A stretch of 64,000 bases of DNA from Squalus acanthias (Eukaryota), in the NCBI GenBank assembly GCA_030390025.1, contig CM059431.1, forward strand, positions 159,404,001-159,468,000. The letters are read 5' to 3'. The position numbers and the translations under genes were made by a program. The notes under the pieces are model-generated. The model had not been told where the DNA came from, made no database searches, and was given only the letters and a program-made list of their open reading frames with translations. Below are positions 30,001 through 64,000 of the stretch, piece after piece; the first letter of the stretch is position 1, and each line of letters starts with the position of its first letter.

Positions 30001-31235
30001 ATGGAAGAGAGCGTTGTTCCCCAAGGGTCAGTGCTGGCCCCACTGCTTTTTTTTATATGATTTAATGACCTAGATATTGGAATACAGTGTAAAATTTCTA
30101 AATTTGCCGATGACACCAAACTTGGGGTTGTGGCAAGCAGTGATGATGATATCAATCGACTGCTACAGGACACAGAAAGGCTAGCAGAATGGGCAGACTA
30201 GTGGCAGATGGCATTTAATACAGAGAAGTGTGAGGTGATGCATTTTGGCTGAAGGAACAGGGAGAGGCAAGATAGACTTAATGGTACAGTTTTAAAGAGT
30301 GTACAGGGACAGAGGGACCTGGGAGTTAATGTGCATAGGTCCCTGAATGTGGCAGGCCATATTGAGAGAGTGGTTAGCAAAGCATATGGGATCTTGGGCT
30401 TCATAAGTAGAGGTATTGTGTACAAAAATAGAGAAGTTATGCTGAACCTTTATAAAGCGCTGGTTAGGCCGCATAATGAAGTATTGCGTCCAGTTCTCAT
30501 CACCACACTTTAGGAAGGATGTGAAGGTCCTTGAGAGGATGCAGAGAAGATTTACCAGAATGGTTTCGGGAATGGGGGATCTTAGCTACAAGGACAGGTT
30601 GGAGAAGCTGGATTTGTTTTCATTAATGATGTGGAGATGCCGGTGTTGGACTGGGGTGGACAAATGTGAGAAGTCGCACAACACCAGGTTATAGTCCAAC
30701 AGCTTTATTTGAAATCACAAGCTTTCGGTGGCTGCTCCGTCATCTGACGAAGGAGCAGCGCTCCGAAAGCATGTGATTTCAAATAAAGCAGTTGGACTAT
30801 AACCTGGTGTTGTGCGACTTCTCACGTGCGTTTTCATTAAAGCAAAGGAGGTTGAGGGGTGATTTGATAGAGGTGTACAAGATTATGATGGGTTTGGATC
30901 GGCTAGACGGGGAAAGGCTGTTCCCACTAATTGATGGTACAAGGATTAGGGGACACAATTTTAACGTTTTAGGCAAGAGATAGAGGGGGGCCGTGAGGAA
31001 AATCCTTTTTACGCAGTGAGTGCTGATGACCTGGAATTCGCTGCTGACGGAAGTGGTGGAAGCGGAGACACTCAATGTTTTCAAGGGGATACTGGATAGG
31101 CACTTGAGGGAAATAAATTTGCAGGGCTACGGGGATACAGCGGGGGAATGGGACTGACTCGAATGCTCTGCAGTGAGCCGGTACCGACTCGATGGGCCGA
31201 ATGGCCTCCTTCTGTGCCATTAAGACTCTATGAAT
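27021..31235 (+). mobile_element. CR1 LINE: ORF1 (zinc finger, esterase) followed by family A ORF2, decayed; possibly composite
   Basis: IVVGDSIVRG, VVVHIGTND; EN YVNAQS..ITETWL, YRPPN; RT AFDKVPH, FADDTK; 3' end gatgggccgaatggcctcc..gactctat. Confidence 0.88.
30627..30829. mobile_element. Fold-back Penelope-like terminus (family PLE-2) with hammerhead core
   Basis: 11-bp TSD gttttcattaa (30616-30626, 30830-30840) interrupting CR1 coding LDLFSL; inverted arms ~30666-30738 / 30752-30825; ctgacga-a-ggagc-agc-gctcc-gaaa at 30744-30768. Confidence 0.8.
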
Positions 31236-31237
31236 AT

Positions 31238-31570
31238 AATTCGCCAAGGCTTCTTCGGCAGCACTTCCCAAAGCCGCGACCTCTTCCACCGAGAATGACA
31301 AGGGAAACAGGACAATGGGAACACCATCACATGCAAGTTCCCCTCGAAGTTACACACCATCCTGACTTGGAAATATCTTGCTGTTCCTTCATCGTCGCTC
31401 TGTCAAAATCTTGGAACTCCCTACCTAACAGCACTGTGGGAGTACCTTCACCACACGGACTGCTGCGTTTCAAGAAGGCGGCTCATTACCACGTTCTCAA
31501 GGGCAATTAAGGATGGGCAATAAATGCTGGCCTTGCCAGTGACGTCCACATCCCAAGAACGAATAAAACT
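31238..31570 (+). mobile_element. 3' fragment of the LINE family seen at 22820-25715
   Basis: Reverse-complement homologue of 22830-23145 (ttcatcgtcgct, ggaactccct, ggatgggcaataaatgctggccttg). Confidence 0.8.
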
Positions 31571-31619
31571 CAAGCACTTGAAATATGTTCGAAACTTCTG
31601 GTAACTGTTAATGAGCAGC

Positions 31620-33540
31620 TGTGCGTGCTTGTCTTGTATAGGTGCTAATAATTCGGGTGAATTGAGGGCTCAGATAGCAATTCTAATCTGGCTGTGGCTC
31701 CAATGTGTGTAAAAGTAAACCGTATCTGTTGACGCACAGAGTGCTCTGCACAGAGTGGTCTTAAATAGAATGCTTCCAAACAGAGAATTAAAGTTGGGAA
31801 TTTGGAGAGAGTGGGAATTCGGCGCAGTGCAGGATAGAGTTGTTGCTTTTTGCCTCCAAAATTTGGAGCGCTTTGTGCTACAGGTAAGTGTTTAATTGCA
31901 TCTGCCTATTAATTAAAATAGATCTACTAATGAGATAAACATTAAATATAAGCTAAGTTAATTAAATATATAAACTTTATTTAACCAAATAAAGAAAACA
32001 AGTATGTATATAGATGTGGTGCAGGTGGTGTGCAGCAACTGCAGCATGTGGGAGTTTGTGGAGAATATTGCAGTCCCGGATGACGACGTCCACAGTAAGT
32101 GTCTGCATCTCGAGCAACTTCAGCTCAGATTTGCTGAGCTTAAGTGCGAGGTGCAGACACTGCGGGGCATCAGGGAGGGGGAGTTAACTGGACACTCTGA
32201 TCCAGGAGGTAGTCACACCTATTCGGTTAGGTTGTGGTACAGGTCTGGTTAGTGATCTGGAACAGCAGGGTGTGACTGCGACTCAGGCAGGTGAGGGGTC
32301 TCCTGGGGCGCTGTTGGAGGAGCCTCGGCCTTTGCCTTTATCCAACACGTACGAGTTTATTGCTGCCTGTGCGGATAAGGGCGAAGTCTGCAGGGTTGAT
32401 GAGCAAACTGACCAAGGCACCGTGGTACAGGAAGCCATTCAAGTGTGCGGGGAGAGTGAAAAGGAATGTTGCATTGGTATGGGACTGTATAGTCAGTGGG
32501 ATAGATACTGTTCTCTTCAGCCGCGATCGGGAGTTCCGAAGGCTGTTTATCTGAGTTAAGGATATATCCTCGCGCCTGAAGAAAAAAATGAATTGGGAGG
32601 AGGAAGTCCAGTGGCCGTAGTCCACGTATGAACCAATGACATATGTTGAACTAGTGATGAGGTTCTGCTGAGACAGGTTGTAGTGCAAGTTTCCAAATTA
32701 AAATGTTGAACCTCAAAGGTAAGACTCTCCGAATTGTTACCTGAGCCACTAGCAAATTGGCATTGGGACAAGCAGATGAGAGATTTAAATGCCTGGCTCA
32801 AAGATGGGTATGCGAGAAACGGTATTGATTCATGGGGCACTGGCAACAGTAATGTGGAAAGAGGGAGCTGTTCCGTTGGGACAGGCTTTACTTAAACCGG
32901 GCTGGAATCAGTGTCCTGGCGAATCTAATAACTAGGGCTATAGATGGGGCATTAAACCTAAAGGCAGAGTTGTCAGGTAAGGGAAAATTTTGAAATCTAA
33001 AAATAAAAGTTAAGAAAATGGAGCAGTGTAGCGATTTGGGTAAAGATAAGCAGAGTGTGAAACGAAGGCACAGACTGATTTTAACAGTAATAGTTCACCA
33101 GCGAATAAGGTGAAACCAGGGAATAATGGTAAAAAATTAAAATTATAAGCTCTTTATCTGAATGTACGAAGCATTCGGAATAAGATACAATAATTAATTG
33201 CATAAATACAGATGAATGGCTTCATCTAATAGCCATTAGAGGGACGTAGTTCTATGGTGTCCGAGTTGGGAACTAAATACTCCCGGTTACTTGACATTTC
33301 GAAAAAAACAGGGAGAAAGGAAAAGGAGGGTATAAACCTATTAATAAAGGATGAGATAAGGGCAGTAGTGAGAAAGGATCTTGGCTCGGAAGATCAGGAA
33401 ATATAATCAGTATGGCTGGAGATAAGAAATAACACGGGGCAGAAAACACTGGTGGGAATAGTTTATAGGCCCCTTATCAGTAGCTATACCGTTGGGCAGC
33501 GTATTAATCAGCAAATAATCGAAGCCTGTAACAAAGCTAA
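31620..33540 (+). mobile_element. CR1 5' portion (5' UTR, ORF1 zinc finger/esterase, start of EN), heavily decayed
   Basis: ORF 32004 CSNCSMWE..KC..LEQLQLR; esterase remnants; ctgaatgtacgaagcattcggaataag (LNVRSIRNK); YRP motif at ~33465. Confidence 0.75.
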
Positions 33541-33859
33541 CCGTCTCAGACCCAAACTCCTGTAGGTCGCCGACCACAATGATCTCAGAAGTCCACACCT
33601 GAGAAACATTAACCTTCTAATGCACATGCTGACGTTACTGTGGGAGAGGAATTCATTGAATAGTAGAACAGGATGCAGGCCGTGTCAGAAGTCATCATTG
33701 GTGAACTCCAGGGTGAAAAATCGATTTCATTGCTTCTTGTACGCCATTAAAGTAGTGCAATTATGAATTTGTTTTGTGAGTCTGTAGCAGTTCACGAGCC
33801 TGCACTGTCAGGTAGAGAGGTTGAAAGCAGGGCAGTGACAAATGGAACGTGCTCTGATA

Positions 33860-34130
33860 ATGGGATCTTTTATTTCTACTCTTGCCTCAGTATCACCTCA
33901 TTATCCCAGCACCAGCATCACTTTTGTCATCATTTCACTTCTGCCCTACACCCCATCACAGTTAGTTGTGCAGTTTATTTATTCCTTTTGTTCTTTTCCA
34001 ACACAACCCCTGTTAATCGCTAACATCTTCCAGTCTGATGAAAGGTCATCGACCTGAAACGGTAACTCTGTTTCTCTCTCCACAGATGTAAGCGGACCTG
34101 CTATGTGTTTCCACCATTTTCTGTTTTTGT
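33860..34130 (+). mobile_element. Penelope-like 3' terminus (family PLE-1) with hammerhead core
   Basis: ctgatga-a-aggtc-atc-gacct-gaaa at 34035-34059 followed by aactctgtttctctctccacagatg, shared with 48702-48790 and 63615-63710. Confidence 0.7.
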
Positions 34131-34817
34131 CACAATTTGTTTGCTTTCTTTTTTTAAAGAGTAAGTTCAGCTCTGAAAGATTTATTTAACTACAGAGCCT
34201 CATAAGTGAGAGATAAGCATATTTTCCGAATGTAGGTGGGTTTTCTTTGTGAGAGAGTGCATGTAATGATAAAAAAAATGCCGGCAGTTTGTAGAAGATT
34301 TAAAAAAAAACTCCAGATTGTGAACGGATGGACCCAGATTAGAGTTTCTGAGTGTTGGAGGGCATGAGCAGCGGTTTGTATTTTAATGGGAAGGGAAGCT
34401 GTTGCTATAACCTGCTGTGAGTGGTGAAGAAACATTCAAAGCGTGGTGAGAGCAGTGATCAGCATGATTAATGGGTTACAATAAAGAAATCTATGTAAAT
34501 GCAAAATGAGTGCGTGAGTCTCACTCTTGCGTTCGGGTCAAGCCATTAAACCTGTTTCTGAACTGAACCCATGTTTTAAGTACGATGCTGCTGGTGCTGG
34601 TCTGCTTAGCAATCTTCCTGCAGTATGGAAGCTGCCTCTGCATTGGGTACCAACGTTATGAGTAACTCCAAGCAGTAATGGGATGAGTGAGCACTTAATG
34701 TGTTTTGTGGTAGTATCGATTGAGGGAGGAATGTTGGCCGAGACATCAGCAGACGCTCATAAGCATATTCGGATGGTACCACGGGGTAATTAGCATTCAT
34801 CTGAACGACATGAACTT

Positions 34818-35300
34818 CAGCAACAGCAACAACTTGCATTTATATAGCACCTTTATCGCAGTAAAACGCCGCATGGCCTTTAACAGGAATATTATCAGAA
34901 AAAATTAACACCGAGGCAAACAAAGAGAAGACATTGCAGGTGATTTTCCGGCTTCGACTAGATCGATAGAAATGGAACCAGGCGAGGACAGTCCCATCAA
35001 GCTGGACAACGCTGAAGAAGCGTTGGAGGGCGATGTTATGGTCAACTGTGTCAATGACTGTGGACACGTCTCGAGCTATGACGGTGGCTTGTGCACCAGA
35101 GTCACAGTCACATGGGATGCCATCTATGAATTTGATAGTGGCCATTCCAGTGTTGTGGCATGAGCGGAAACCCGATCGGAGATGTACAAACATAGAGTTG
35201 AGGGAAAGATGGGCATGGATTTGTGAGGTGACAACACGATCAATGACTTTGGAGAGCAACGTGAGGTTGCAAATGAAACGGTTTTCCCTCGATTGAAAGT
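34818..35300 (-). mobile_element. L2 LINE fragment (RT piece joined to 3' tail)
   Basis: ORF 34840-35259 SGFRSCHNT..DVSTVIDTVDH; tail caacagcaacaacttgcatttatatagcac. Confidence 0.7.
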
Positions 35301-35974
35301 CACATCTGAAATTTGATTACGGCCTTTTAACTCACTCCCAGTGAGGCTTTACACTCTAAACTGAAAACTTTGAATGCAAGAGGCCTTACTACATTTTGCC
35401 TGCTCGTCATCAATAGGTGTTAATAAAGAGCGCGAAGCCGGGCACAGCCATCACCCCTCTCAACCCCCACCGCCCCCGCCCTCCACTCCCACCTCACCAC
35501 AGCTTTGCTTGCGCATGATACTGTCAATTTAGCACAGATCAGAAGCTGACTTGACAACTTCCTGTTCTTGACTGCTGCAATTCACAACAGTGAGTCCATT
35601 ATGTTGCCGGAATAGGTACAATATATAATTAGTTTATTATAGAATTTAATGTTCCCTTACAATTGATAACCGTTAGCAATCTCAAACTTCTGCTATTCGG
35701 ATACATTGAACGCAAGCAGCATAGGATATCACGTTGATGGAGTATAACAAATGTAGTGCTCCCATGTGTTTCCATATTGTTTGCATTGGATGACGATGTC
35801 TTCCATTGAGTTTATAACGTGCGAATTGAGCGAGCTGCGTTTTTATTGATTAATAACACGAATTGTGCTTCAGCTAAATACCATCAATTAGTGAGAATAT
35901 CATTGATACATTATCTATCGCAATGACATTCACTAAGGATACTATTACTACATCAGTCAAATAAACCTGACATT

Positions 35975-36440
35975 AAAATGAGAAGTCGCACAACACCAGG
36001 TTATAGTCCAACAGATTTATTTAAAATTACAAGCTTTCGGAGCTGTCGCCCCTTCGTCAGGCAAAGTTACTGTGAGAGAATCTATCAGAATTCACAGAAT
36101 ATAATAACACAGAGAAAATGCATAGATTAAATCTTTCCCTACATCAAAGACACACTAAGAGCACAGCCAAGACAATGAGATGTGTCCCCTGGGGCACATC
36201 GCATTGTCTTGGCTGTGCTCTTAGTGTGTCTTTGATGTAGGGAAAGATTTAATCTAAGCATTTTCTCTGTGTTATTATATTCTGTGAATTCTGATAGATT
36301 CTCTCACAGTAACTTTGCCTGACGAAGGGGCGACAGCTCCGAAAGCTTGTAATTTTAAATAAATCTGTTGGACTATAACCTGGTGTTGTGCGACTTCTCA
36401 TTTTTGTCCACCCCAGTCCAACGCCGGCATCTCCGCATCA
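35975..36440. mobile_element. Fold-back Penelope-like insertion (family PLE-2): ~430-bp near-perfect palindrome plus unpaired 3' terminus
   Basis: Arms 35975-36189 / 36191-36404; direct repeat tgacattaaaat at 35968-35979 and 36441-36452; 36401-36440 is the reverse complement of 30627-30664. Confidence 0.85.
36319..36348 (+). ncRNA. Putative minimal hammerhead ribozyme core (mirror copy on minus strand 36060-36031)
   Basis: CUGACGA-A-GGGGC-GACA-GCUCC-GAAA-GCUU; palindromic AAGCUU in place of helix III; helix I and cleavage site not confirmed. Confidence 0.55.
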
Positions 36441-36906
36441 TGACATTAAAATCATATAGCAGAGACTGCATGGTGGACCACCATTAATTGGGAACCAAGT
36501 GGGAAGAAATAGATCTGACGCAATATTAGTGCTAAGGGTCCTGGACAACGTTTCCTCCGCTCTGTGTGCAGCGATCGTCCCCGGAAAAGTCATCTGTTAA
36601 TAGTTATCAGGAAAAAGGTAACACGATGTGGAATCGCCAATGGTGCTTCTGGAAATTAGATAGTTCAATTTTTTGACAAGCCTTCTCTTAGCGTCTCGCC
36701 TGCCACACATTTGACAGAATTCTCGGTGCGTTACTCAATGGTGAATGGTGGAACAGTCGCCCTGTTCCTGGCAGCAATCCAGTGGCACTGCACAGTTCGA
36801 TATACTTCTCTTTTATGTGTCGTAACTCCCACGCATCCTCTAAATTTTGGCTGGTGTTATTCAATATAGCCATTGAAATAAATCAACCTTATTGAGAAAC
36901 GGCCAT

Positions 36907-36991
36907 TCAGTCAAAGTTACATCTGGTCCCGTGTACCTGGTCCGTCTCCAGAGATTTCTGTCCTCCTGGAGTGAAGTCGTTGCGTCCCAAT
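36907..36991 (-). CDS. NLR gene coding exon 7 (last; LRR end and stop)
   Basis: Acceptor ttattttacAG, phase 2; RLGRNDFTPGGQKSLETDQVHGTRCNFD*. Confidence 0.75.
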
Positions 36992-37585: not shown

Positions 37586-37671
37586 ATTATAAAAAAAACA
37601 CTTACGTTATTCCTTGTAAATATTTAACTAATAAATAAAACTTTTACTTAATATATATATTTTTATCTAAC

Positions 37672-37863
37672 CTGATTTCCCTCAGATGATTGTTCCTCTG
37701 GATGAGGCGGCGCAGTGCGGGAATAGAGCTGTCTGTTAGTTTATTGCAGCATTTTAAACCCACGGCATTGTTACTCAAGTCCAGCTCCATCACTGACTGG
37801 TTACTAATGATAGCGGATGTCAGCTCTTCGATACAACCGTCTGTGAGATTGTTAGCTTTTAAG
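37672..37863 (-). CDS. NLR gene coding exon 6 (LRR)
   Basis: Acceptor tttggttttaccacAG, donor AG|GTTAGA, 192 nt, phase 2-2; LKANNLTDGCIEELTSAIISNQSVMELDLSNN..NKLTDSSIPALRRLI is a ribonuclease-inhibitor-type LRR pattern. Confidence 0.9.
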
Positions 37864-39099
37864 CTGTGGTAAAACCAAAACAGGGAATCCAATATCAACA
37901 TCACACAGGCTGTGGCGGAAAACAGCAATGGAAGAATCACCAAATCAAATGGCATACCTGCTCATTTCTGAGAATGAAAATGTACAATAGACACAGAATT
38001 CAATAGAAATTAAAGTAAACAGGTCCATGTTGGCAATTATGTTTCGGACGAGCTTCCTCCCATTCTATTTATTTTCATCTCACCCCATCGACATATCCTG
38101 TACTTCTTTCTCCCTCATGGCCCGGATTTTGTGTTGTCTAATAACGGTGAACTGTCAGCATACGCCATCATTACTCCTCTGAAACTGACCGTTAATTCAG
38201 GATTTAGCGCGTGCACAGAACAAACGCAGAAATTCTGAAGTCGCGGTCAGTCAGTCACCGGTCCAACTGAGGCTGCGCTGTGGAACACCACTCCCCATAG
38301 CCGACAATCAGTAAAATCAGTGAAATTGACGAAAACTTAAGCTTTTCCGCCGTAAGATCTCTCTTAAGCACAACATTAAATGCTAACCCTTGTTCGAATA
38401 GATATAACAGGGATTTTAACAGCGTATTAACTGCTAAACACCTGTTTTGTGCCTGAAAAACTTTATATTTATGGATGTCATATTATGGATTAATGCCAGT
38501 TCTCCATTATCATAAAAATTACTAGGAGCTAAAAATTCGGGGATTTAGCGCAACCCGTTGCAGCCAGATTCAGGAAGAAATAGCTTCCGCTGTATTTCCG
38601 GCCCTTGCCGTCGGCATCCGCGGCGCCCGCCATTTTTGGCTGGGCGGTAACCTTGCCGATGTCTGCGCTCGCGTAAATTATGTAGATTATGCATAACGTG
38701 ACGTCAGATAGTGGGCAATGCTCAATTGATGCCCGATCTGCCAATTTCAACTTCGCCACTCCACTTACCAGAATCTCTTATCTGCGACCAGCTGAGCAAG
38801 CGTTGACCAGCAGGAATGAGGGTCCAGCCGCGTTATTTAAAGGGATCATCAGCAATAGCTTGCAGCTGACATGTTACTGCTGTTTGACTGGCTCTGTGTA
38901 ACTTTCTGCAACTCCAGCAGCTTTATAAATTTATTTCAAGGTCCTAAGGTAACAGGGAGTGTTTGGGCAAGTGGAGAACGCCTTCATTCTTACTTACGTC
39001 ACTTGCACACCGTCATGAGGACTCTACTTGCAGTCCCCCTCGCGCTCGAGTATCTTCGAGAGAAGGACCGGAGGCAGGGGGAAATAGGAGAAGATGCAT

Positions 39100-40157
39100 G
39101 AAGAGGGAAGAGGAGGGGGGCAGGTTGGCTCTCAACAGGAAGCCTCGCCTAACTAGGGTATTAAGAGAGCAATTCTCTTATATCCACTTCAGCTAGGAGC
39201 AGTTTATTAGGATGCTCCGCTTTACCAAGTCGGTGGTCACAGAACTCTGCCACCTCCTGTGGCTTTCGCAGTGGCAGTAAAGGTCGCCGTGGCACTCAAT
39301 TTCTACACCAACGGATCCTTCCAGTCTGCAACAGCTGACATAGCTAACATCTCGCAGTTCACCACCATCGCTGCATCCGGGACGTCACAGAGATCCAGGC
39401 GAAGGGATTACGTTTTCTTCTTTCTGAGCAGGGAGAAGCAGGACGAGCGTGCATGTGACTTTGCCAGAATAGCGGGCTTCCCCATGGTGTAGGGTACCAT
39501 CGTATGCACACACGTGACTTTGCAGGCACAATATACCAATCCTGATATCTTCCATAATCGCAAAGCCAACCACCCAATTAATGGGCAGTTGTTGTGCGAC
39601 CATGCCAAGCGATTCCTGATGGTCAATGCCCACTATTCTGGCAGTAGTCATGATGCCTTCATCCTGCATCAGTCTGGTGTGCCAGCATCCTGTCATCGCA
39701 TCAATCTCCAGGGTGGCTGCTGGAGACAAAAGCTATCCGCACTGCACCTGGCTCATGACTCCCCTCCGCACCCCAAGAACACGTGCCCAGCATTCATATA
39801 ATGATGCCATGCTTCCACCAGGAATATCATCGAGTAGACCATCGGGCTAGTGAACAACCGTTCTACGCCTTGACTGCCTGGGAGAAGCCCCCAGTACTCT
39901 GCAAGTGGGTGCCCCATTTCATGGCGGTCCGCTGCATGCTTCTCAACTTGGCCATCATGAGAGCACAGCCCTTGCCACCAGGGATTGCAGGACCACGTCA
40001 GGAGGAGGGCGAGGGACAGGAGGAGGAGGAGGTTGAGGAAGAGGAAGATGAAAAAGTGGAAAAGGAAGAGGACGTAGAGGAAGGGAGGAGGCAGGCAGGC
40101 AATCCAACTTCCGGACGGGCTGTCCGTGAAAGCCTCATCAGACTCCGATTTCAATGA
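39100..40157 (+). pseudogene. Harbinger DDE transposase (HARBI1-like), pseudogenised; start approximate
   Basis: RVLREQFSY..LRFTKSVVTELCHLL, VKVAVALNFYTNGSFQ, FARIAGFPMV*GTIVCTH, NRKANHPINGQLLCD, GSSHDAFIL, GDKSYP..WLMTP, CCMLHN-like RCMLLNLA, acidic tail; stops and frameshifts; first catalytic Asp (GAIDCTH) appears replaced by Val. Confidence 0.88.
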
Positions 40158-40325
40158 ATGAAAGCCCATTGCTCACGAAATCCACATTCTACCATCACTC
40201 TGTCATGGATTACACAGCGTCCTCCTGGGCATAAAATTGGAATCAGAGGCACGACAAAAAATTCCAAACATAAGTATTAAATGTATCAAGTATCAATTTA
40301 CACATACGGTTTTAATTAATCACCA

Positions 40326-42088
40326 TTAGTGCCTGTGGTTCGGGACACTTTCATGATCTAGTGCTTCAACGAAGTTCTCCCCCAGTGGCTGCAGCATGGC
40401 CGGCGGATAGCTATTGAGTTTCCATGGGGGAGACTTCAGATGGCCTTGCAGAAGGACCTCGAGCAGTTCTGGACATAGAATACCCAGCTGTAGACTGCAA
40501 AACCTCGGCATGAGCGGCGACGTCTGGCCTGGCTGTCGGGCAGGCAGCAGCAAAGGCAATGTCTGAATGGCAGTGGTGGGGGCAGGAATGCAGTGATCCT
40601 GAGAGAGAACAGCAGATTTCTGCTCCACGGACCCACTGCCAATCTGCCGGGGCGGCGCCGCAGTTTTCCTAGCAGTCTGACGCAGCACAGTTTGCTGGCC
40701 TGTTGCGACATCCTGCAAGTCCCGGTCGACAGTTGAAAACCCAGCCACGATGGCAGCAGTCTGAGCTTGTTTGACAGCAAGCTGAGACTGCATGAGAGCG
40801 ATCTGCACTTCTGTGGCAGCACGAAGACGCTGAGTCATTTGCACCTGAGCTGCAATGGCAGCTGCGACATTGCACATCAGATGCAACAACAAGTCGGGGT
40901 CGACACTCTTTCTTCCTGAGTTGTCTTGCATGGAAAGTCTGGCCTCCAAGCTGTGTGCAAAGCCCCGGGCAATGTTGAAGGCAAACTCCTCCATGCTCCT
41001 TGACATTGCAACATGTTCTCCGTCAGGCTTACAATTGCATCTAGCAAATGGGTGTGCTTGCCCATCGCCCTTCTTCTGAATGCCGCCCCATCGAGGTCCT
41101 CATCTGAGTCCTGTGCTGAGGAAGTCGCATACGAACTGAAGCCCACTCGTGCCTGGTGCCTCACCCTGTGCAGATCCCGCTTCTAAACTATCCTTTAAAT
41201 GATGCGCAGTGCCAGTATTTGTGTTGGTGTCTGTGAGTGATAGATGCAGTGACGCTGTGTCTTCTCCTTTTTACCCCTCGCTCTCCTCCATTGCCTGGGG
41301 GAAAGGCTGGGCTGGTACTTGATCTTGATTATATGAAAGCAGAAAGGCACAAGAGTCGGGTTATGGTGAGGGAAGGGGGAAGCAGGATATCCATGCAAAC
41401 AACATTACCAGCTTGACTATGAGAAGAGATTGTGGGATGAGTGGGAAGTAGGATGTGAGAAGAAGGAGTAGGGTTCAACACACCGCTGTTGTCCCAAAAG
41501 GCTTCAATCTCGGTGATTGCCACGGGATCCATTAGTTGCCGCCCAATGATTTCCAGCACTCGCTACTCCAATTGGCAGAGGTCCTGCATGGCAGCTTGCC
41601 CCCTGCCTGTCTGCTGCTGCTCCCGGCGATTATGCGCCACATTGAGCTGTGGTGCAATGGCTCAATAGCTGTCAGTGTGTGCAAGTTGTGAAATGTTGGT
41701 GTGAGCGTTGCAGCAGTGATCAGGTTGTGAGGGTTAAGTGAAGATATGATAGCGAGGACTGAGTGCTGATAGGTAGAGATTGTTCGTAGGTGAGTGCAGG
41801 AGGCGTGGTACATTGGTCAGGAATTTTCTGAACCCTTCATTTACTTTGACCGGCCATGTGAGGTCATTAAACCTCTTTCGGCACTGCTTCGACGACCTGG
41901 GGACCACAGTGCTGGCCGTCATACAGTCGGCTATCTCTCGCCACAGCCTTCGGGATGTATGCAGCCATGGATTCCTGCCGCCTTGCAGGAAGAGGACAGC
42001 CCGCCTCCTCTCCAGGGCCACCACTGGTGCCTGCAGAGCCCCGTCTGAGACTCTACGGGCTCTTCCCCTGTGCTGAGGCTTGGCCATC
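40326..42088 (-). pseudogene. Harbinger Myb/SANT-like DNA-binding protein gene (spliced, decayed)
   Basis: RARRVSDGAL..RRAVLF..LWREIA..RSSKQCRKRFNDL (MSANTD/trihelix-type pattern); downstream coiled-coil-like Ala/Gln-rich ORF 40326-41006. Confidence 0.8.
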
Positions 42089-42227
42089 TGCTTCGAGCAC
42101 CGTCTGATTCCAGGTTGAGTTCGAACTGGATTGACAATGAGGTGCTGTAGCATCAATGTACCTTCCCTTTAAGTACTGAATTAAGCCTGTGCCGATATTA
42201 GCCCACCTGTTGAGCCGTAATCCAATG

Positions 42228-47932: not shown

Positions 47933-48200
47933 ACGAACCATGTGTTTATCTAGCCTGCCCTTAAATGCATCTGTGCTATTAGCCTCAACCATTCCATGTG
48001 GTAGAAACGTATACATTATAACCATTTTCTAGGAAAAATAGTTCCTTCTGAATTCCTTATTGGATTTATTAGTGACTATCTTGTATTAACGGCTGGAGAT
48101 TTTGGACTCCTCCAAGTGGAAACAATAGTATTTACTTTTTCATTCTAAAATTGCAAATCATCATTCCTATATTATAATCGTCAGTATTGCAGTTATTATA

Positions 48201-48794
48201 CAAAATCAAAATACTGCGTGTGCCAGAAATCTTAAATAAAACTGAAAATGCTGGAAATACTCAGCAGGTCAGGCAGCATCTGTGAAGAGCGAGAAACAGA
48301 ATTAACGTTTCAGGTCGATGACCCTTCGTCAGAACTGTTATCAGCTGGAGATGAAACAGGTTTTTAAGCAAGTGTAGGGACAGGGAAAGGTGGAGGGGAG
48401 GAAAGAACAAAAGGGAAGGTCTGTGATAGGATGGAAGGCAGGAGAGATTAAGAGACAAAAGGGCTGATGGTGGACAGAAAATTCTGGAAATACTCAGCAG
48501 GTCAGGCAGCACCTGAACAGAAAAGGGTGGAAATACTGAGCAGGTCAGCCAGCATCTGAGTACCATCATCCCTTTTGTCTCTTAATCTCTCCTGCCTTCC
48601 ATCCTATTACAGAGCTTCCCTTTTGTTATTTCCTCCCCTCCCCCCTTTCCCTGCCCCTATACTTGGTTGTAAACCTGTTCCATCTACAGCTTTTTCCAGT
48701 TCTGACGAAAGGTCATCGACCTGAAACGTTAACTCTGTTTCTCTCTCCACAGATGCTGCCTGAAATGATGTGTATTTCCAGCATTTTCAGTTTT
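48201..48794. mobile_element. Fold-back Penelope-like insertion (family PLE-1) with hammerhead cores on both strands
   Basis: 16-bp TSD tattgcagttattata (48185-48200, 48795-48810); inverted arms ~48235-48470 / 48563-48794; cores at 48702-48731 (+) and 48332-48303 (-). Confidence 0.85.
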
Positions 48795-48987
48795 TATTGC
48801 AGTTATTATAATTAGCTTCACTTACTCCAGTGTTTGTATTTTGCAATCATTTTTCTTCAATGCTGTAGACAGCCTTTTCACTACCACATCTTCCAGCTTA
48901 ATCTCATTGAGCCTAAACACAAATAACATTAGACATAACGTGGAATGTGTTTAAGTAGGGGAATAAATTCCAGTGTTTCACTCTACA

Positions 48988-49143
48988 GGATAGAAATTCG
49001 TCTCGGGCGGTAGCGTAATATGGGCTTTATAGCACCGCCCGCCCCTTATATGCCAAGCCTGATATTCGATTCCATTGAACAGTATAACAGGCGGAAAATG
49101 CGATCGCATCAATTTTGCTCTGTCGTTCAAGACGAATTTCAGA
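48988..49143. mobile_element. Palindromic MITE (family P), degenerate
   Basis: tagaaattcgtctcgggcgg..gcctgatattc..agacgaatttcag. Confidence 0.55.
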
Positions 49144-52650: not shown

Positions 52651-53544
52651 CTGGAAACACAATGCAGAAAGATTCAACCCAACATCTTGAGGTGCACCAT
52701 ATCAAGTTGTGTCTAATACTTGTAAGACAAATATGTCCAGCGCAGTTGTTACAATTCGGGATGCTATAGTTATTGATTTTACCAAATCAGCAGCTGCTGG
52801 ACACACCCTGCGTGTTGAGTTATCATCAATTCATGAGGTATTTAAAGAGCATTTTTGTTTCATTTCAGATTTCCAGCGTTTGCAGTTATTTCCTTGTTTT
52901 ACATTTTTAGGTTACATGATTTCATCGACAGAGTAATAGCACAACAGACTGATAAAGATCAAAAGAACCATTCACTCACCAAACTAATTCTGAACCTGAA
53001 TATCAGGATGTTTTAAGAGTATTACCAAAGGATAGATCCAATTAAAACAATAAATTTAATGCGGTAGATATGATACACTACAGTGTGCTTCATAAAAGAA
53101 TTACAAATCGAGAGAGTGGCATTCAAGGAGGAAATTATTCAATACGAGAGGTAGCAGTGGATTAAAAACAATGTAACGTTGAACCACTATTCAAAACAAT
53201 GACAAAACAAAGCTAGAAAACTGCAAATTTATTAGCTTTGCATCAAAGGCAAAGGGAGACATTCGGATCTTTACTTTATTTTGTTTAACGCAGAGGCTTG
53301 TAGGGACATGGAATTCCTCACGGGAGACAGAGATGGAATCAGATCTGTATTACTTTTTCAATGGAAAGTGAGCAAATATTTGAAAAAATGGAATAGAATA
53401 TTGGGAAAGGGCAGTGCCAAGTGGATAGCTCTCTCAGAGTGCCAGCGAAAATACCATAAGCCAATTGATCTCCTTCTGTGCTGTTAAAGTCCAATAGATT
53501 AATTTGAGTCTTCACCAAATGGCAGTAACTGACGGAGCTGATAA

Positions 53545-56902: not shown

Positions 56903-57824
56903 CTACAGTCGAGAGATAAAGGAGAAAGAAAAATGACTACAATAAAAATAACGGACCAGAATTTGCTCTGGGAATACGCTAAATTTGCTTGCGCATGCGC
57001 TAAATCCCGGACTTGCGATCTTCCAATGTACGCATTGACAGATCATCTGCACCAGCAAAGAAAAATCAATTTCTGGCGCAGAGTTGGGCTATTTTCCCAG
57101 CAATTACATACGAAAATGTTACGCTTGATGCAAGCAGACGCAGGGCCTGTTTGCATCAGCGTAAGTGAAAACCTTATGCATATTTTAACCATTTTCAGCT
57201 CGGAAATCAGATTGTTTAATTGAATCACGTGAGTTTTTTCTGTTTCTGCAAAGATTAGAGTTTTTAATGATGTCGATAATTATTATCAACAAAATTATTT
57301 TTTTACTAATCTACTAAGATTTAGTAGAACTGGTGGAAAGCAGCTAGCATGCAGAATGCTACAATTGCCATAAGCTGCACTTTTTGTGTACAAGTAAAAT
57401 ATTTAAGAAGTTTTAGGAACAGTTTTGGCAAGGGACCAGCAGGAGATAGAAGAGCCACTTATTTTCAAAAAAGTAGCATTTATCAGGTGTAACAATGAAT
57501 TGATATAATTTAGGAGCGCAGGCAAAGTGGTCGGTGATGTTTCGAGTTAACCTAAAGCCGAGGCGTCACACATATTTCACCGCAGAAAACATAGCTGCAA
57601 CAAGATTGAGTCGAAGATTTGGTAGAGCTACAAAAATGAAATATGAATATTTCTATAACATTTAGATTACATTTAACTTCATTGCTGATGATAAACGATT
57701 TCGCAGTCTCAGATCAGTTGCAAATCACAACAGAATGAGAAGAGACTGAAAACACAGATTGAGGTATACTGATTAAATTTTAAATACCGGCGATATATCA
57801 GGTCAACACAAAGAGTAATCTGAC

Positions 57825-58356
57825 CGGATGTGCGTGCGCGTCTGTCATATCCGCCGGGAGATTTTTCTTCCAGTCCCGGATGTAATTCATCATTGGCTCT
57901 GTGTGTGGGTCTGATATCACTGTAATTTTTCGTGGTGAGCAGAGTTTCTGCAGGACCATTTTCCTCTTGGTCCTGATTCGATATTTCAGACTTGGCAGTT
58001 ACAGGGCTACTCTTTGTAGATGTATTGCCATGAGATTCTATCCCGGTGCGAAGCCTTTGTTCCGGTTCTGTGTTGGGATATTTAACCGTTTCATCAGCTG
58101 TGATTGTGCTTCTGTTATTTCCTGTAGAGGTATCATGCTTATCGTACTTTTCTTTATCACTCTTACTGAAAAAGTTGCGTAAGGATCTATATTTGCCTTC
58201 TAATTTGTTATGCTTTCGGTCGCCTGGCTGTTTCTGCCGATGTTCACTGATAGCAGACGTATTTACGTCGCCTGGTTCATTACAACTACGAGAGGGCGTG
58301 GTCTTTTTTTTAGGCGTTGTTTTTGTCCGGGATCCCACATTCGGATTCTCAGCCAT
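57825..58356 (-). CDS. NLR gene coding exon 1 (low-complexity N-terminal extension; exon begins at 58385)
   Basis: Acceptor attgttttAG at 58387-58386; in-frame TAA upstream of atcATGg at 58356; donor G|GTCAGA, phase 1 matching the next exon; S/T/K/E/N-rich, 177 aa. Confidence 0.7.
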
Positions 58357-58750
58357 GATGTCACCTCACGGAGAAGCTTATTTTTCTAAAACAATGATTC
58401 AAATCGTCAACATTAATATTCGTATTCCTGATGTTACAGGATGTAACTGAGCAGGATATATTTTAATAAATACTTCAAAAACTTCACACGTTCCATAAAT
58501 TATTACCCTTATTTTGAAGCAGTATTGACGGCATTCACAAAATTTATGTTCAATAACAATCATAAATAACAAATCCATAAAATTATCTTGCCATATGAAT
58601 AATTTTGAAGCCAAATAACATGCATGAATCGAAGGCTGCTGAGCTTTTGTATCATAGGCCCTAGAGCCTAATCCGGCAGACAACGAGATCATGGCTGATC
58701 TGTAAACTAACTGCATCCATCTGCCTTTACCCGGCATCAATTTTACACCT

Positions 58751-60085
58751 TAGAGTCATAGAGTCATAACGGCACAGAAGGAGGCAATTCGGCCCAACGT
58801 GTCAGTGCCCGCTCTCTATAGAGGAATCTAGTGAGTACCATTCCCCCGCTCTATCCTCGTAGGCCTGCAAGTTTATTTCCCTCAAATGCCTATCCAGTCT
58901 CCCCTTGAAAACATTGAGTGTCTCCGCTTCCACCACTTCCGTCGGCAGCGAGCTCCATGTTCTCACCACTCACTGCGTAAAAAAGTTCTTCCTCACATCC
59001 CCCCTGTATCTCATGCCCAAAATCTTGAATCTGTGTCCCCTAGTCCTTGTAACATCAATTAGTGGGAACAGCCTTTCTCCGTCTAGCCTCTCAAAACCCG
59101 TCATAATCTTGTACACCTCTTTCAAGTCAGCCGTCAACCTCCATTGCTCCAATTAAAACAAATCCAGCTTCTCCAACCTGTCCTTGTAGCTAAGATCCCC
59201 CATCCCTGGAAGCATTCCAGTAAATATCCGCTGCGCCCTCTCAAGGGCTTTCACATCCTTCCTGAAGTGTGATGACAAGAACTGGATGCAATAATCCAGT
59301 TGTGGCCTAACCAGCGCTTTATAAAGGCTCAGCATAACGTCTCTACTTTTGTACTCAATACCTCTACTTATGAAGCCCAAGATACCATATGTTGTGCTGA
59401 CCACTCTCTCAGTACGTCCTGCCACCTTCAGGGACCTATGCACATTAACTTCCAGGGCCCTCTGTCCCTGTACACTCTTTCAAACTGTTCCATTAAGTGG
59501 ACATTGCCTCTCCCTGTTCCTTCTGCCAAAAAGCATCATATCAATCTTCTCTCTATTAAATTCCATCTGCCACGTGTCTGCCCATTTTGCTAGCGTTCCT
59601 ATGTGCTGTTGCTGTCGACTGGTATCTTCCTCACTTTTTTCCTCACCCCAAGTTTGGTGTCATCGGCAAATTTAGAAATTCTACTCTGTATTCCAATATC
59701 CAGGTCATTTATATATATCAAAAAAGCAGTTGCCCCAGCACTGACCCTTGGGAAACACCACTGTCTACCATCCTCCAGTCTGAAAAACAGTCATTTACCA
59801 CAACTCGCTGTTTTATGTCCTTAAACCAATTCATTTTCCAAGCTGCCACTGACACACCTATTCCATGAGCCTCAATTTTGTTAACCAGCATTCTATGTGG
59901 TACTTTGTCATACGCCTTCCTAAAATCCGTGTAGACAACATTCATTGGAATACCTTCATCGATCCTCCCTGTTACTTCATCAAACATTTCAATTAGATTA
60001 GTCAAACATGATCTGCCTTTTACAAATCCGTGTTGGCTCTCCTTAATTAGCTTAAACCTCTCGAAGTGCCCGTTATTTTTTTCCT
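58751..60085 (-). mobile_element. CR1 family A, 5'-truncated, nested in another CR1
   Basis: (tagagtca) tail; RT fragments DFRKAYDKVPH, RPQLDYC. Confidence 0.88.
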
Positions 60086-60087
60086 TC

Positions 60088-61140
60088 CTCCAGCAAAAAT
60101 ATATTCACAGATTTAAAATTATTAATTTAGCTAGCATCTACTGCTTTTTGTGGGAGATAACTAAGCACTTCTACCACCCTTTGCATGAAGAAGTGTTTCC
60201 TAACTTCTCTTCTGAATGGCCTGGCTTTGAATTTAATGCTATGTCCCTTTATCCAAGACACACCCACCAGCAGAAAAAGTTTCGCTCCATCTACCCTATC
60301 AATTACTTTCAAAATCCTAAAAAGCTCAATCAAATTATCCCTTAACCTTCTATATTCCAAAGAATACAAGTCTACTTTAGGTAATCTCTCATAATAATCT
60401 AACCCTTGGAGCCCTGGTAACATTCTGGTGAATGTGCGCAGTACTTCTTTCAAGGCCAATATATCCTTTCTAAGGTGCGGTGCCCAGAACGGTACACAAT
60501 ATTCTAGACATGGTCGAACCATTTATATTCTAGCCTTCTGTTTATAGAGGCTGACATCTCAATAGCCTTTTTGATTATGTTTTACCTCACTACTACATTT
60601 TAGTGATCTGCGTAAATGACCTCCTAAATCTCGTTGAATCTCCAGTGTACCTGGCTTGTTGCCATTTAAATAATAATCGGAAATATTCTTTTTTGTTCCA
60701 AAATTGATGATCTCACCATTACCGGCCTTGAAATCCACCTGGCACCATTTCGGCCACATACTTAATCTATCAATGCCTCGTTGGAATGTTATGCTCCCGT
60801 CTACACGAAGTACTATACCACCAATCTTGTGTCATCGGCAAACTTGAATATATGACTCTCCACTGTGTTATCTAAGTTATTAATAAATATATTGAATAGG
60901 TGAGGCCCCTGTCGCAGATCTTTCTGGGACAAAGCTAGTCACTTCCTTCCAATTCGCATAAACACACGTTATACCTATTCTCTGTCTTCTACCGTCTAAC
61001 CAGCCTCCGAACCAGGTCAATAATTTGCCTTCAATTCCATGATCTTTAATTTTAGCTAACAGTCTGTTATGTGTAACCTTATTGAAAACCTTTTGGAAGT
61101 CCATATAAGCTGGCTGCATAGACATTTCTCCTGTCTACTA
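60088..61140 (-). mobile_element. CR1 family D-like fragment (its 3' end lies at ~58650-58750)
   Basis: YMDFQKVFNKV, RPCLEYC, RRLRDNLIE. Confidence 0.8.
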
Positions 61141-61269
61141 TGACTTACTGTCTACTGCTAATATATGTCGTTGTTTAATTGTTTGAACCGCCTGCTAGTT
61201 TCTCCAAGATCCGTGAACGCGGTGTCACCTCAGATATCTATACCCAGCATTTCTTCAACTCATTGCTGA

Positions 61270-61885
61270 TCCATTCAATCTGGTTTCTGCCGGTGCCGCC
61301 GCACTGAAACGGTGCAAACCTCAGCACATCTTCCATTCAAACCAAATTCATGCCTTTGTCACCTCCAGACACCATTACTACAATGCATCTGTTTCCGACC
61401 TCCCATCCATTTCCGTCCATAAGCGTTAATTCATCCAAAACTATTCTGCCCATATCCGAAACCAAACAAGGACTCACGCGTCTTAATGGGCCTACATTGG
61501 TTCGTAATGCATTCGTGCCACAAATTTAAATTTATCATTCCTGTGTTTAAACCCGTCCATCATTTCATCATTCCCTATCTCTACAATATTGTGCGCACAA
61601 TTTCTCTGAAAGTACACATTTTTCCTAACACCACCCTCGTGTTCCATCGCCCTAACATTCTTCAGCCTGTGTCTTGAGCCACGTAGGTGACACTCTCTGG
61701 AATCTTTACCTTTCTCCAACTCCTACTTTCTGTCACTTCTTCAATGCCACACCTTTGGCCAAACTTTTGGCCACCTGTTGTAATAACTGCTTTTTTCCAC
61801 ATTCCATTTTGCCGCCCATTCTGTGAAGGGTCTTCAACTATGTTTTCTACCTTAAAGAAGCGATATACATACTTACACTATGTTG
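61270..61885 (+). mobile_element. Old L2 3' fragment
   Basis: ttcatgcctttgtcacctccagac..tacaatgc (HAFVTSR-like); degenerate L2 3' end. Confidence 0.6.
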
Positions 61886-62211
61886 TTTATTTGCGTTATA
61901 GAAGGCATGGAGTAATACCTTCGAGACAAAAGGGGTTATTATAAGAGCTATGAAAAGTTCAAAATATTGTAAAATATGAAAACATTTGAAAGAAGCAGTA
62001 AAATGACGAGCAAAATGGAGATTAAATTAATAATCAGTTGTTGCTGATGCATAGAAATAACATTTCTTTCAAATGTTGGGCACTGGATGTCTCCACCTCT
62101 TCAGCAGACCGAGGACGTGATGTGTCCCTCCGGTTAACGATTCCCTTTGCCTCTCTTGAAACTTGCAAGAGCTGCTGCTTACTTCTGCTCAGTCAATCCT
62201 CCCCAGTGCAT

Positions 62212-62980
62212 ACCAATAACAAGAAATTGTATTTATATAGTGCGTCCAATGCAGTAAAACGTCCCAAGGCGCTTCACAGGAGCGTTACCAAACAAAATTT
62301 GACACCGGGCAACATAAGGAGATTTTAGGGCAGATGACCAAAGGCTTGGTCAAAGACATAGGTTTTAAGGAGCTTATTAAATGAGGAAAGAGATGTTGAA
62401 AGGCGCAGAGATTCAGGGAGGGAATGACAAATCTTAGGGACTTGGCCGCCAATGGTGGAACGATAAAATCTCGGATGCTTAAGAGGGCAGAATTGGAGAA
62501 ACACAGATATATCGGAGGGCTGTAGGGCTGGAGGAGATTACCCAAATAGGGAGGGATTTGAAAACAAGAATGAGAATTTTAAAATCGAGGCGATTTCTTA
62601 ACCGAGAGCCAAAGAAGGTCAGCGAATACAGGGCTGATGGGTCAACAGGACTTGGTGAGAGTTAGGACCCGGCAGCAGAATATTGGATAAACTCAATTTC
62701 CGGTGTGTAGAAAGTGGGAGGGCGGATAGGAATGCGTTGGAATAGTTAGGTCTAGAGGTAACAAGAGCACGGATGAAGGTTTCAGCAGCAGGTGAACTGA
62801 AGCAGGGGCGGAATTGGGCGATGTTACAGAGGTGGAAATAGGAAGTATTAGCGCGGATATGTGGGCGCAAATTCATATCGGTGTCAGATATGGCACCAAC
62901 GTTAGGAATAATCTGGTTCAGCCTAAGACAGTTGCCGGGCAGAGGGATTGAGTCGATGGCCAGGGAACAGAGTTCGTGGC
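62212..62980 (-). mobile_element. L2 LINE 3' fragment
   Basis: FHLCNIAQFRPCFSSPAAETFIRALVTSRPNYSNA; L2 tail aaaacgtcccaaggcgcttcac. Confidence 0.82.
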
Positions 62981-62994
62981 AGCCTCACACTTAC

Positions 62995-63460
62995 CATCTC
63001 GCCACATGGCATGCCAATTTCGATGCTGGTGCGTTGTATTGCGAGAGCGAGTAACCAAGCATTCTCATCACGTTTTGTTTATCGTCAACCTGGCGTCGCA
63101 ATGTTGATCAAGTCTTCAAATTAATCTAGTAAAAGGGGAGAGGGAGACGTGTTAGGATAAAGCTGTTAAGGAAAATATTGGAAACCAGCGGCCTCTCCAT
63201 GAATCAGCAAGTTATCAAAGGTCAGTGAGTGCATGACTGAAAGAAGTAGCAGAAGAATAGGAAGATAAGCTGTCAACACAATCTGCTGTGCCAAGCCTCT
63301 GGCCTCGGTACATCCGATCCTGACTCATGTGCAGCTTTCTATTATTTATATCGCAGCCTGTTCCATAGAGCGAGTGTCTGCTGTGTGGTGAGAATTTCCG
63401 CGTTGCCGTTTGCCTGTCTTCTATTGTGTGACAGGTTCTGCTACAAGAGCAAATGAAACT
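62995..63460 (-). promoter_or_regulatory. Candidate NLR promoter and non-coding first exon
   Basis: Donor ATG|GTAAGT at 62995/62994; minus-strand TATAAA 63350-63345; AP-1 TGACTCA 63321-63327; kB-like GGAAATTCTC 63399-63390; IRF-like CAAATGAAACT 63450-63460; non-repetitive island among TEs. Confidence 0.45.
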
Positions 63461-63589
63461 CGGTTAACATGTGTTCTGGGAAAGGGTGTTCTATCCTTTC
63501 CATACATTAGGCACTTTACCATATGGAGCTCGAGTGAAGAGCACAGCAAAGAGAGAACTGAATTGTCGGCCATTGCTCAGGTGTTAATT

Positions 63590-64000
63590 AAACATAAGAA
63601 CATAAGACGAAGTTCTGACGAAGGGTCATCGACCTGAAACGTTAACTCTGTTTCTCTCTCCACAGATGCTGCCTGACCTGCTGAGTATTTCCAGCATTTT
63701 CTGTTTTTATTTAAGAACATAAGAATTAGGAGTAGGAGTAGGCCATTCAATAAGGTCATGGCTGATCTTCTACCTCAACTCCACCTTCCCGCCCGATCAC
63801 CATATCCCGTGATGTCCCTAGAGTCCAAATATCTATCTATATCAGCCTAGAATAGACTCAACGACTCAGCATTCACATCCCTTTCGGGTAGAGAATTCCA
63901 AAGATTCACAACCCTCTGAATGAAGAAATTCCTCCTCCTCTTAGTCCTAAATGGACAACCCCTTATCTTGAGACTATGTGCCCTAGTTCTTCACTCTCCA
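63590..64000 (-). mobile_element. CR1 (family C-like) 3' end, running off the window
   Basis: (aacataag)n tail; ggagtaggccattc; gagaattccaaagattcacaaccctctg. Confidence 0.85.
63608..63711 (+). mobile_element. Minimal PLE-1 insertion (~104 bp) beginning just upstream of a hammerhead core
   Basis: agtt-ctgacga-a-gggtc-atc-gacct-gaaa-cgtt-aact at 63611-63647; direct repeat taagaacataaga at 63595-63607 and 63712-63724, within a CR1 tail. Confidence 0.75.

Follow-up and report, generated by a model that had tools for sequence, protein, structure and literature searches.

Five insertions in the window

The window, a 64,000-nucleotide stretch of Squalus acanthias DNA, contains seven minimal hammerhead ribozyme cores, and all seven, with both of their helix II families and their strands, lie where a preliminary description of the sequence had placed them. 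That description spoke of seven short elements. The cores exist, but they belong to five insertions (A to E): A, B and C are head-to-head inverted pairs, and D and E are single arms. The insertions, their arms and their target-site duplications (TSDs) are as follows.

30616-30840: insertion A, family 2, head-to-head hairpin within a CR1-type LINE
30616-30626 and 30830-30840: TSD of A, 11 nt
30627-30743, minus strand: left arm of A, with a degenerate hammerhead core, 3' stem-loop and 39-nt tail (30627-30665)
30740-30825, plus strand: right arm of A, tail-less, with its start at helix I (5' strand); in the core at 30744, U16.1 is changed to A
35968-36452: insertion B, from a subfamily of family 2, a hairpin of two head-to-head arms with 211/214 identity
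35968-35979 and 36441-36452: TSD of B, 12 nt
35975-36188, minus strand: left arm of B, tail-less, overlapping the TSD by 5 nt; complete minimal hammerhead at 36060
36191-36440, plus strand: right arm of B, comprising upstream UTR (128 nt), a complete minimal hammerhead at 36319, a 3' stem-loop and a 40-nt tail (36401-36440)
48185-48810: insertion C, family 1, a hairpin of two head-to-head arms with 89% identity
48185-48200 and 48795-48810: TSD of C, 16 nt
48201-48473, minus strand: left arm of C, comprising an upstream UTR rich in pyrimidines, a complete minimal hammerhead at 48332 and a 34-nt tail (48201-48234)
48474-48558, minus strand: centre of C, where the family 1 3' segment recurs as two additional copies of 42-43 nt, 93% and 88% identical to the left arm
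48562-48794, plus strand: right arm of C, tail-less, overlapping the TSD by 4 nt; complete minimal hammerhead at 48702
63595-63724, plus strand: insertion D, family 1, one arm without a tail (63608-63711) that carries a complete minimal hammerhead at 63615
63595-63607 and 63712-63724: TSD of D, 13 nt
33910-34138, plus strand: insertion E, family 1, a lone arm of old age, 67% identical to the C arm; core at 34035

The two flanks of A adjoin each other in a LINE paralogue near 4090, which has the TSD position once. D is located in the short-repeat end of a CR1-type LINE, and its arm starts 3 nt before helix I. The extra 3' segments in the centre of C end just short of the tail-less end. In the core of E, U16.1 has become G (34062) and one helix I base is missing; we looked for a TSD at E and found none. 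Cuts are predicted after 36348 in the right arm of B and after 63643 in D. In line with the preliminary description, we found no coding sequence for the RT or GIY-YIG domains of a Penelope-like element (PLE) in the window: tblastn with 35 proteins yielded no RT or endonuclease match. A search for further LRR exons found only 37644-37961 (minus strand) and about 21503 (plus strand), and thus an intronic position of C in an NLR gene is not established.

Hammerhead anatomy

A spacing pattern for the cores gave eight matches in the window, compared with a mean of 0.47 in shuffled sequence, and none of 100 shuffles reached eight. The eighth match, at 11794, is without helix II and was dropped. All seven remaining cores have the CUGANGA and GAAA boxes, the extra base and helix II. 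We also found a helix I of 4-5 bp in six of the seven; helix I and the cleavage triplet had been overlooked previously. The full minimal-hammerhead descriptor (a palindromic 15.2/16.2, U16.1, an H17 other than G, and 3 bp or more in helix I) describes five of the seven cores, against a null mean of 0.06 and a maximum of 1 in 100 shuffles. The two other cores, 30744 and 34035, have lost U16.1. At 34062, the U16.1 site of the latter, T makes up 97.6-98.7% of the depth (three runs from two samples; the site is among the 40 differences listed of 209). One further degenerate core, an eighth, lies near 30743 on the minus strand in the left arm of A.

An Rfam search of the window at E<=10 returned eight matches, none to a hammerhead family. 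Within the 6-nt palindrome into which GAAA was said to run in the best copies, the unit that matters is the 4-nt A15.1-N-N-U16.1, which reads ACGU in family 1 and AGCU in family 2; the outer bases of AACGUU and AAGCUU are A14 and the cleavage-site nucleotide H17. At positions 10.1-11.1, all three family 2 cores have a G-C pair, and the family 1 cores have G-U (two of four) or A-U (two of four) instead. Two-sided changes occur in 8 of 11 helix pairs, 93.5% of cells are paired compared with 20-49% in slid controls, and the covariation score is 0.73 compared with at most 0.13, in a set of seven distinct sequences from two families from which the structure itself was read.

Action of these hammerheads as dimers at these loci is not supported; the dimer idea fits the tandem transcript of the parent instead. 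Each pair has its cores on opposite strands, and helix II has a computed probability of 0.000 in read-through RNA for all five hairpin cores. Because such RNA would form a long hairpin, the cores would be buried in it. The hammerheads in these stubs are most likely inactive. The predicted MFE structure of the family 1 monomer pairs the core with the downstream strand.

Junctions, abundance and parent elements

TSDs flank four of the five insertions (A, B, C and D), and the chance of a TSD of at least 11 nt is 0.004 per site. Their A+T content is 77-83%, compared with 56% for the window. In all three hairpins the tail is one-sided (39, 40 and 34 nt in A, B and C), and an adjacent inverted, 5'-truncated copy is present in three of the five insertions. 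To describe abundance, we used contigs of three sequencing runs from two samples; no contig spans the stretch, and accordingly none showed an empty allele of B. Summed contig depth, which is not equal to copy number, was approximately 3 million over both termini and less than 100 on unique flanks. Breaks fell at 34128/34130 in 10 of 15 listed joints and at 35975/35979 in 6 of 15. We considered whether 419-706 loose ends before 34034 were 5' truncations and rejected this, since their consensus continues as family sequence; that consensus follows the one-base loss in E. We conclude that both termini are extremely abundant in the sequencing runs.

Family 2 is linked twice to a PLE coding end, in two relatives outside the window. 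The marine contig L001, which is of low coverage and looks chimeric, carries a GIY-YIG C-terminal remnant that precedes a family 2 hammerhead with its stem-loop and tail by approximately 210 nt; this remnant matches the RT-bearing protein P0017 with an E of ~1e-15. P0023, a chimeric gene model from the catshark Scyliorhinus torazame, contains an endonuclease end followed by a translated hammerhead region, stem-loop and tail at a spacing of approximately 200 nt. The right arm of B is 69% identical to L001:874-1019 over 150 nt, and the translated tail of the A left arm is identical to P0023 at 10 of 10 residues. The match of the 128 nt upstream in B to the translated P0023 UTR is limited to the last few codons, so B belongs to a subfamily other than that of the linked parents. 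In eight aligned proteins picked from 35, the cysteines of a CX4CxxC linker (C743, C748 and C751) are invariant. A CX2-5CxxC linker before the GIY-YIG domain served as the clade criterion, and the related proteins have the zinc-finger linker of Neptune/Nematis, two groups that are taken together here.

Family 1 is a PLE by anatomy only. We found no parent ORF for it in the collections searched, which include little vertebrate DNA, and a protein search with the translated family 1 arm gave no match. The out-of-frame piece of L001 likewise matched no protein. Loci encoding P0017 or alignment A2 were searched for and none was confirmed. A scan for the motifs of the two families gave no hits in viral contigs or prokaryote genomes and one in metagenomes, and family-specific motifs were likewise not found in viral contigs.

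Origin of the stubs

Taken together, the five units are very probably 5'-truncated pLTR insertions of two endonuclease-positive Penelope-like families in a cartilaginous-fish genome. Weighing against this reading are the failure to find a family 1 parent ORF, the separate subfamily of B, the quality of L001 and P0023, the small covariation set, the closing pair and monomer fold of family 1, and the failure to find a TSD at E. We observed the hammerhead anatomy, covariation, TSDs, inverted arms, one-sided tails, fixed tail-less ends, abundance and the linkage of family 2 to the end of an RT and GIY-YIG ORF; the steps of the mechanism are drawn from published PLE biochemistry. The parent protein would nick both strands of A+T-rich DNA with a stagger, giving the TSD. 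Reverse transcription would begin at either of two fixed points in the 3' stem-loop, 34-40 nt apart, producing tailed or tail-less ends, and would halt early, leaving a 5' truncation. During insertion a second, inverted arm would be added, either copied by fold-back or primed from the other nick. The minimal hammerhead would be inherited cargo, with weak cleavage expected in a head-to-tail transcript of the parent, either as a dimer through the 4-nt palindrome or helped by the PLE protein. The earlier assignment to PLE termini is supported for family 2 by its linkage to the GIY-YIG C-terminus and for both families by anatomy, and the earlier interpretation as a whole is partly supported.

We also weighed a dedicated short non-autonomous template, a hammerhead-headed RNA of 110-250 nt mobilised in trans by PLE protein in SINE fashion, which we consider quite unlikely. 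Such a template would fit the start of the A right arm and of D (two of the five insertions) no more than 5 nt from the 5' strand of helix I, the start of both C arms within 2 nt of one upstream base despite the 88 nt between them, and the flat depth across the upstream arm of B (36040 to 36189). It would also fit the splice-acceptor-like tract that ends at or next to helix I in the C right arm and E of family 1, the place at which the D. virilis Penelope intron ends. However, the remaining arms begin 128 to approximately 140 nt upstream at varying points, no two of the three hairpins share a centre, an RT that stalls at a folded ribozyme would explain the starts at helix I equally well, and contig depth is not copy number. 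Joining such a template to the PLE reading gives an account that we still regard as unlikely: the stubs would record PLE transposition junctions, family 1 RNA would start from a splice acceptor at the foot of helix I and serve as a short, hammerhead-headed, trans-mobilised template that reaches very high copy number, both target strands would be primed at two fixed sites by a dimeric PLE protein, and the two 43-nt pieces of C would reflect repeated restarts at the internal site, ahead of the making of the inverted arm.

The preliminary description had also raised retrozyme-like units. Non-LTR retrozymes are hammerhead repeats in tandem, which cut themselves to yield circular RNAs and propagate by a rolling-circle route; they have their origin in PLE pLTRs, and the only chondrichthyan sampled has them. 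By definition they comprise two or more head-to-tail units in succession, each with a complete hammerhead, and the window contains none; none of its 12 tandem repeats includes a core, the pairs are inverted rather than tandem, the ribozymes are minimal rather than canonical, and TSDs with tails are the anatomy of PLE insertions. With three different centres in the three hairpins as well, this origin is very improbable. Least probable of all are MITE-like palindromes moving as whole hairpins. A, B and C are indeed long inverted repeats with TSDs at their borders, but their ends are asymmetric in that just one side bears a tail, the TSDs range in length from 11 to 16, no centre is common and the single-arm copies D and E exist.

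On the preferred reading of truncated PLE insertions, two cartilaginous-fish families are added to the known PLE minimal hammerheads, and repeat annotation of the window changes from seven short elements to five insertion stubs. Such long hairpins resemble miRNA precursors and MITEs, and shark gene models absorb PLE ends. Given how abundant the families are, their junctions offer a means of testing the origin of the inverted arm and the tail. These data hold no pointer to a new ribozyme or host function.

Comparison with known systems

The arrangement is already described for the Penelope-like class; three short motifs from the window had no occurrence in the literature searched. Minimal hammerheads are known from the pLTRs of metazoan PLEs (Cervera and De la Pena 2014, PMC4209133), and the cores here share their CUGANGA core, extra base before helix II, GAAA, two-base palindromic 15.2/16.2, U16.1-H17 and short helix I, in agreement with the consensus in that paper's supplement. 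Family 1 differs in its G-U or A-U at 10.1-11.1, although G-U also appears in the published table; cartilaginous fish do not appear in the part of the supplement searched. Dispersed singles and opposite-strand pairs 100-700 bp apart were described there too.

Insertions of endonuclease-positive PLEs carry an inverted pLTR, a tail and a TSD (Arkhipova 2013, PMC3846280; Craig 2021, PMC8557442), and ours likewise show an inverted, truncated head-to-head copy, a 30-40 nt tail on one end and variable TSD length. In contrast to those insertions, truncation is extreme, with the ORF gone entirely, TSDs are 11-16 nt rather than the 8-10 of the rotifer examples, and C has two extra 43-nt central pieces. 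Non-LTR retrozymes (Cervera and De la Pena 2020, PMC7229834; Li 2026, 10.64898/2026.07.22.740005) are similarly short non-coding units with type I hammerheads and kinship to PLE pLTRs, but they form head-to-tail arrays, whereas the units here are single or inverted with PLE-type junctions.

ORFs of the Neptune/Nematis clade (P0017, P0009 and relatives from Mustelus, Scyliorhinus, Heptranchias and Chiloscyllium) have RT, a DKG motif, the CX4CxxC linker and, at the C-terminus, a GIY-YIG domain; they are absent from the window, and it is this endonuclease C-terminus that the family 2 terminus adjoins in L001 and P0023. PAc, the Poseidon element of Anolis carolinensis (Frangieh 2024, PMC11167929), belongs to another clade and has its ORF start at helix II, and the portion of its supplements searched as text gave no match. 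PAc and the stubs are alike in having A+T-rich targets, a hammerhead upstream and, as proposed for the stubs, two adjacent RT start sites in the 3' stem-loop that define the tail.

Hammerhead cores and their helices

All seven cores of the preliminary description were recovered on the expected strands, and all seven matches are real. We found, however, that they make up five insertions and not seven elements:

30616..30840, insertion A, family 2, core at 30744
35968..36452, insertion B, family 2, cores at 36319 and 36060 (minus strand)
48185..48810, insertion C, family 1, cores at 48702 and 48332 (minus strand)
63595..63724, insertion D, family 1, core at 63615
33910..34138, insertion E, family 1, core at 34035

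The core spacing pattern matched eight times in the window against 0.47 expected, and 0 of 100 shuffles attained eight. The eighth match, at 11794, lacked helix II and was discarded. Using the consensus numbering in the Cervera and De la Pena 2014 supplement (PMC4209133), each core is followed by A15.1, a two-base palindrome, U16.1, H17 and then helix I's 3' strand, with U16.1 lost in the copies at 30744 and 34035. This 3' strand pairs with the 4-5 bases preceding the core in six of the seven, and the complete minimal-hammerhead descriptor was satisfied by five (null mean 0.06). We aligned the seven cores with one outside relative, giving seven distinct rows. Paired cells reached 93.5%, two-sided changes occurred in 8 of 11 pairs, and the covariation score was 0.73 compared with at most 0.13 for slid partners; because the alignment is small and its rows are related, the covariation is support rather than proof. 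An Rfam search of the window returned no hammerhead matches. We conclude that the hammerhead-like motifs are real.

Anatomy of the insertions and a proposed mechanism

In insertions A, B and C the element is present as two inverted, head-to-head arms, of which one exceeds the other by a tail of 39, 40 and 34 nt, respectively. Direct repeats flank A (11 nt), B (12 nt), C (16 nt) and D (13 nt), and a repeat of at least 11 nt arose by chance in 0.4% of 2000 random site pairs. These target-site duplications (TSDs) are 77-83% A+T compared with 56% for the window, and a paralogous LINE copy joins both flanks of A without a gap. Insertion E is an old copy without a TSD, 67% identical to C. The arms of B are identical at 211 of 214 positions, and both have the same uncommon loop on helix II. 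Those of C are 89% identical and are separated by two additional copies, each 42-43 nt long, of the 3' segment. Both of these family 1 copies (48474-48558) end near the tail-less end and start near the acceptor-like CAG preceding an ATG, and they possibly reflect repeated reverse transcriptase (RT) re-initiation. A stem-loop closed by the family 2 tail is retained in L001, a marine metagenome contig, and the tail-less end lies within this stem-loop. In addition, 52848-52891 weakly matches (E 0.017) the family 1 end plus tail, and may be the coreless remnant of a sixth, very old insertion.

Endonuclease-positive Penelope-like element (PLE) insertions are marked by an inverted truncated copy, an optional 30-40 nt tail and a TSD (PMC3846280 and PMC8557442), and A, B and C share all three. 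We propose that the parent PLE protein would nick A+T-rich DNA on both strands, that RT would begin at either of two fixed points and halt early, and that the inverted arm would arise during insertion. According to PMC11167929, the Anolis PLE protein cleaves and extends both strands, and in that element two RT start sites, both located in a stem-loop, delimit the tail. Fold-back copying has been proposed as the origin of the inverted copy (PMC3846280). Both fold-back copying and priming from the second nick fit our insertions: the common start of the C arms is compatible with the former, and the overlap of the tail-less end with the TSD, 5 nt in B and 4 nt in C, is compatible with the latter.

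A listing of sequencing runs gave five DNA runs and no RNA run. We aligned contigs of three runs from two samples to 33800-36189 at 80% likeness. Summed depth, which is not copy number, was about 3 million across 34040-34119 and 3.5-3.8 million across 35960-36039, and less than 100 in unique flanks. U16.1 was present at 34062 in 97.6-98.7% of depth. Among the 15 joints listed (there were 151 further), break points fell at 34128/34130 in 10 and at 35975/35979 in 6, and this concentration indicates that the position of the tail-less end is fixed across each family.

The start point is helix I for D and for the right arm of A. Family 1 also carries an acceptor-like pyrimidine tract ending in CAG at or beside helix I, and another directly before a downstream ATG:

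48685-48701, acceptor-like tract at helix I
34020-34034, acceptor-like tract at helix I
48738-48756, acceptor-like tract before ATG
63651-63669, acceptor-like tract before ATG

The D. virilis Penelope intron terminates at helix I. No splice donor was identified for the family 1 tracts. Helix-I starts and acceptor-like tracts count only toward the unlikely reading of a spliced, short, hammerhead-headed template.

Parent of the termini

L001 was the sole match in a motif scan of metagenome contigs and is 69% identical to B across 150 nt, tail included. A frameshifted coding remnant lies ~210 nt upstream of its terminus. A 30-residue piece of this remnant retrieved protein P0001, which retrieved 34 more, many from sharks, and the remnant aligns with the C-termini of these proteins (E about 1e-15). 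P0017 and P0009, ORFs of probable Neptune/Nematis-clade PLEs, contain an RT domain; P0032 has an RT match and a GIY-YIG match slightly below the Pfam cut-off; and P0017 neighbours in Atlas are RT/HTH_animal/GIY-YIG clusters. A CX4CxxC linker is invariant in 8/8 aligned PLE-related proteins, and linkers of this type are characteristic of the Neptune and Nematis elements. A second, independent link comes from P0023, a septin model of Scyliorhinus torazame carrying a foreign N-terminus. It runs from the endonuclease end through about 65-70 further codons into the hammerhead region of family 2 and on through the tail; the final 10 residues of the tail are identical to the A and B translations. From these two sequence linkages we conclude that family 2 is a PLE terminus, though L001 and P0023 are both chimeric objects. 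The upstream segment of B belongs to a subfamily other than that of the linked parents.

The preliminary description had inferred PLE termini or retrozyme-like non-autonomous units, and this GIY-YIG linkage bears out the former for family 2. A translated-arm protein search and a family-specific motif scan of viral contigs found no family 1 parent ORF, and the assignment of family 1 rests on anatomy. In line with the preliminary description, which saw no PLE coding sequence, searches with 35 proteins found no RT or endonuclease remnants in the window.

The low-coverage L001:1-1663 combines a prokaryote-like ORF, the 3' end of a PLE and one half of a gene for deoxyhypusine synthase, and is probably an assembly chimera. 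An ATG stands at the tail end in L001, as it does in B, and possibly opens the following copy of the ORF. PLE endonuclease C-terminus pieces also occur in shark models P0010, P0011, P0014, P0023, P0026, P0028, P0034 and P0035. The gene models with such a piece are XRCC5, PPP1R12A-like, FAM210B, septin 5a, FSTL5, USP8 and FAM204A, and the pieces are annotation artefacts or exonised PLE fragments.

Genomic setting, ribozyme activity and known PLE hammerheads

The window is vertebrate DNA and contains many LINE RT fragments, which we take to be CR1/L2-type, a NACHT/LRR exon and a Myb + DDE_Tnp_4 transposon remnant. The resemblance of the family 2 tail to the catshark model P0023 points to a cartilaginous-fish source. 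Two LINE copies about 10.04 kb apart are 91-95% identical. A separate G+C-rich palindromic family is MITE-like and lacks a hammerhead core; its two long copies are 86% identical, and its palindromes yield chance miRNA matches in Rfam.

5242-9300, minus strand, LINE copy
15287-19270, minus strand, LINE copy with an open RT stretch of 399 codons
50107-51840, minus strand, NLR gene piece, open 577-codon exon (FISNA-like/NACHT/HD2/LRR)
37644-37961, minus strand, LRR-like exon
about 21503-21690, plus strand, LRR-like exon
39400-42200, G+C-rich block, Myb/SANT-like (minus) and DDE_Tnp_4 (plus) ORF fragments, presumably PIF/Harbinger-type
22570-22720, 12951-13057, 49028-49077 and 22428-22507, G+C-rich palindromic family

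Read-through RNA is predicted to form long hairpins (-133 to -403 kcal/mol), with a helix II probability of 0.000 in all five hairpin cores. The predicted fold of D retains helix II (0.92-0.96) with the core mostly paired, and the E core is mutated. In copies that retain the core, the template RNA was not cut at its own hammerhead. The ribozyme's place would be a tandem transcript of the parent PLE. Minimal hammerheads of the PLE type cleave weakly in tandem transcripts, as dimers or assisted by protein, and insertion in vitro does not require the motif (PMC11167929).

The literature searched, largely open-access, gave no description of these shark families; the supplements of the preprint 10.64898/2026.07.22.740005, which sampled one chondrichthyan, may list them. 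PLE minimal hammerheads as a kind were described in 2014 (PMC4209133), and we conclude that both shark families are further members of that kind.
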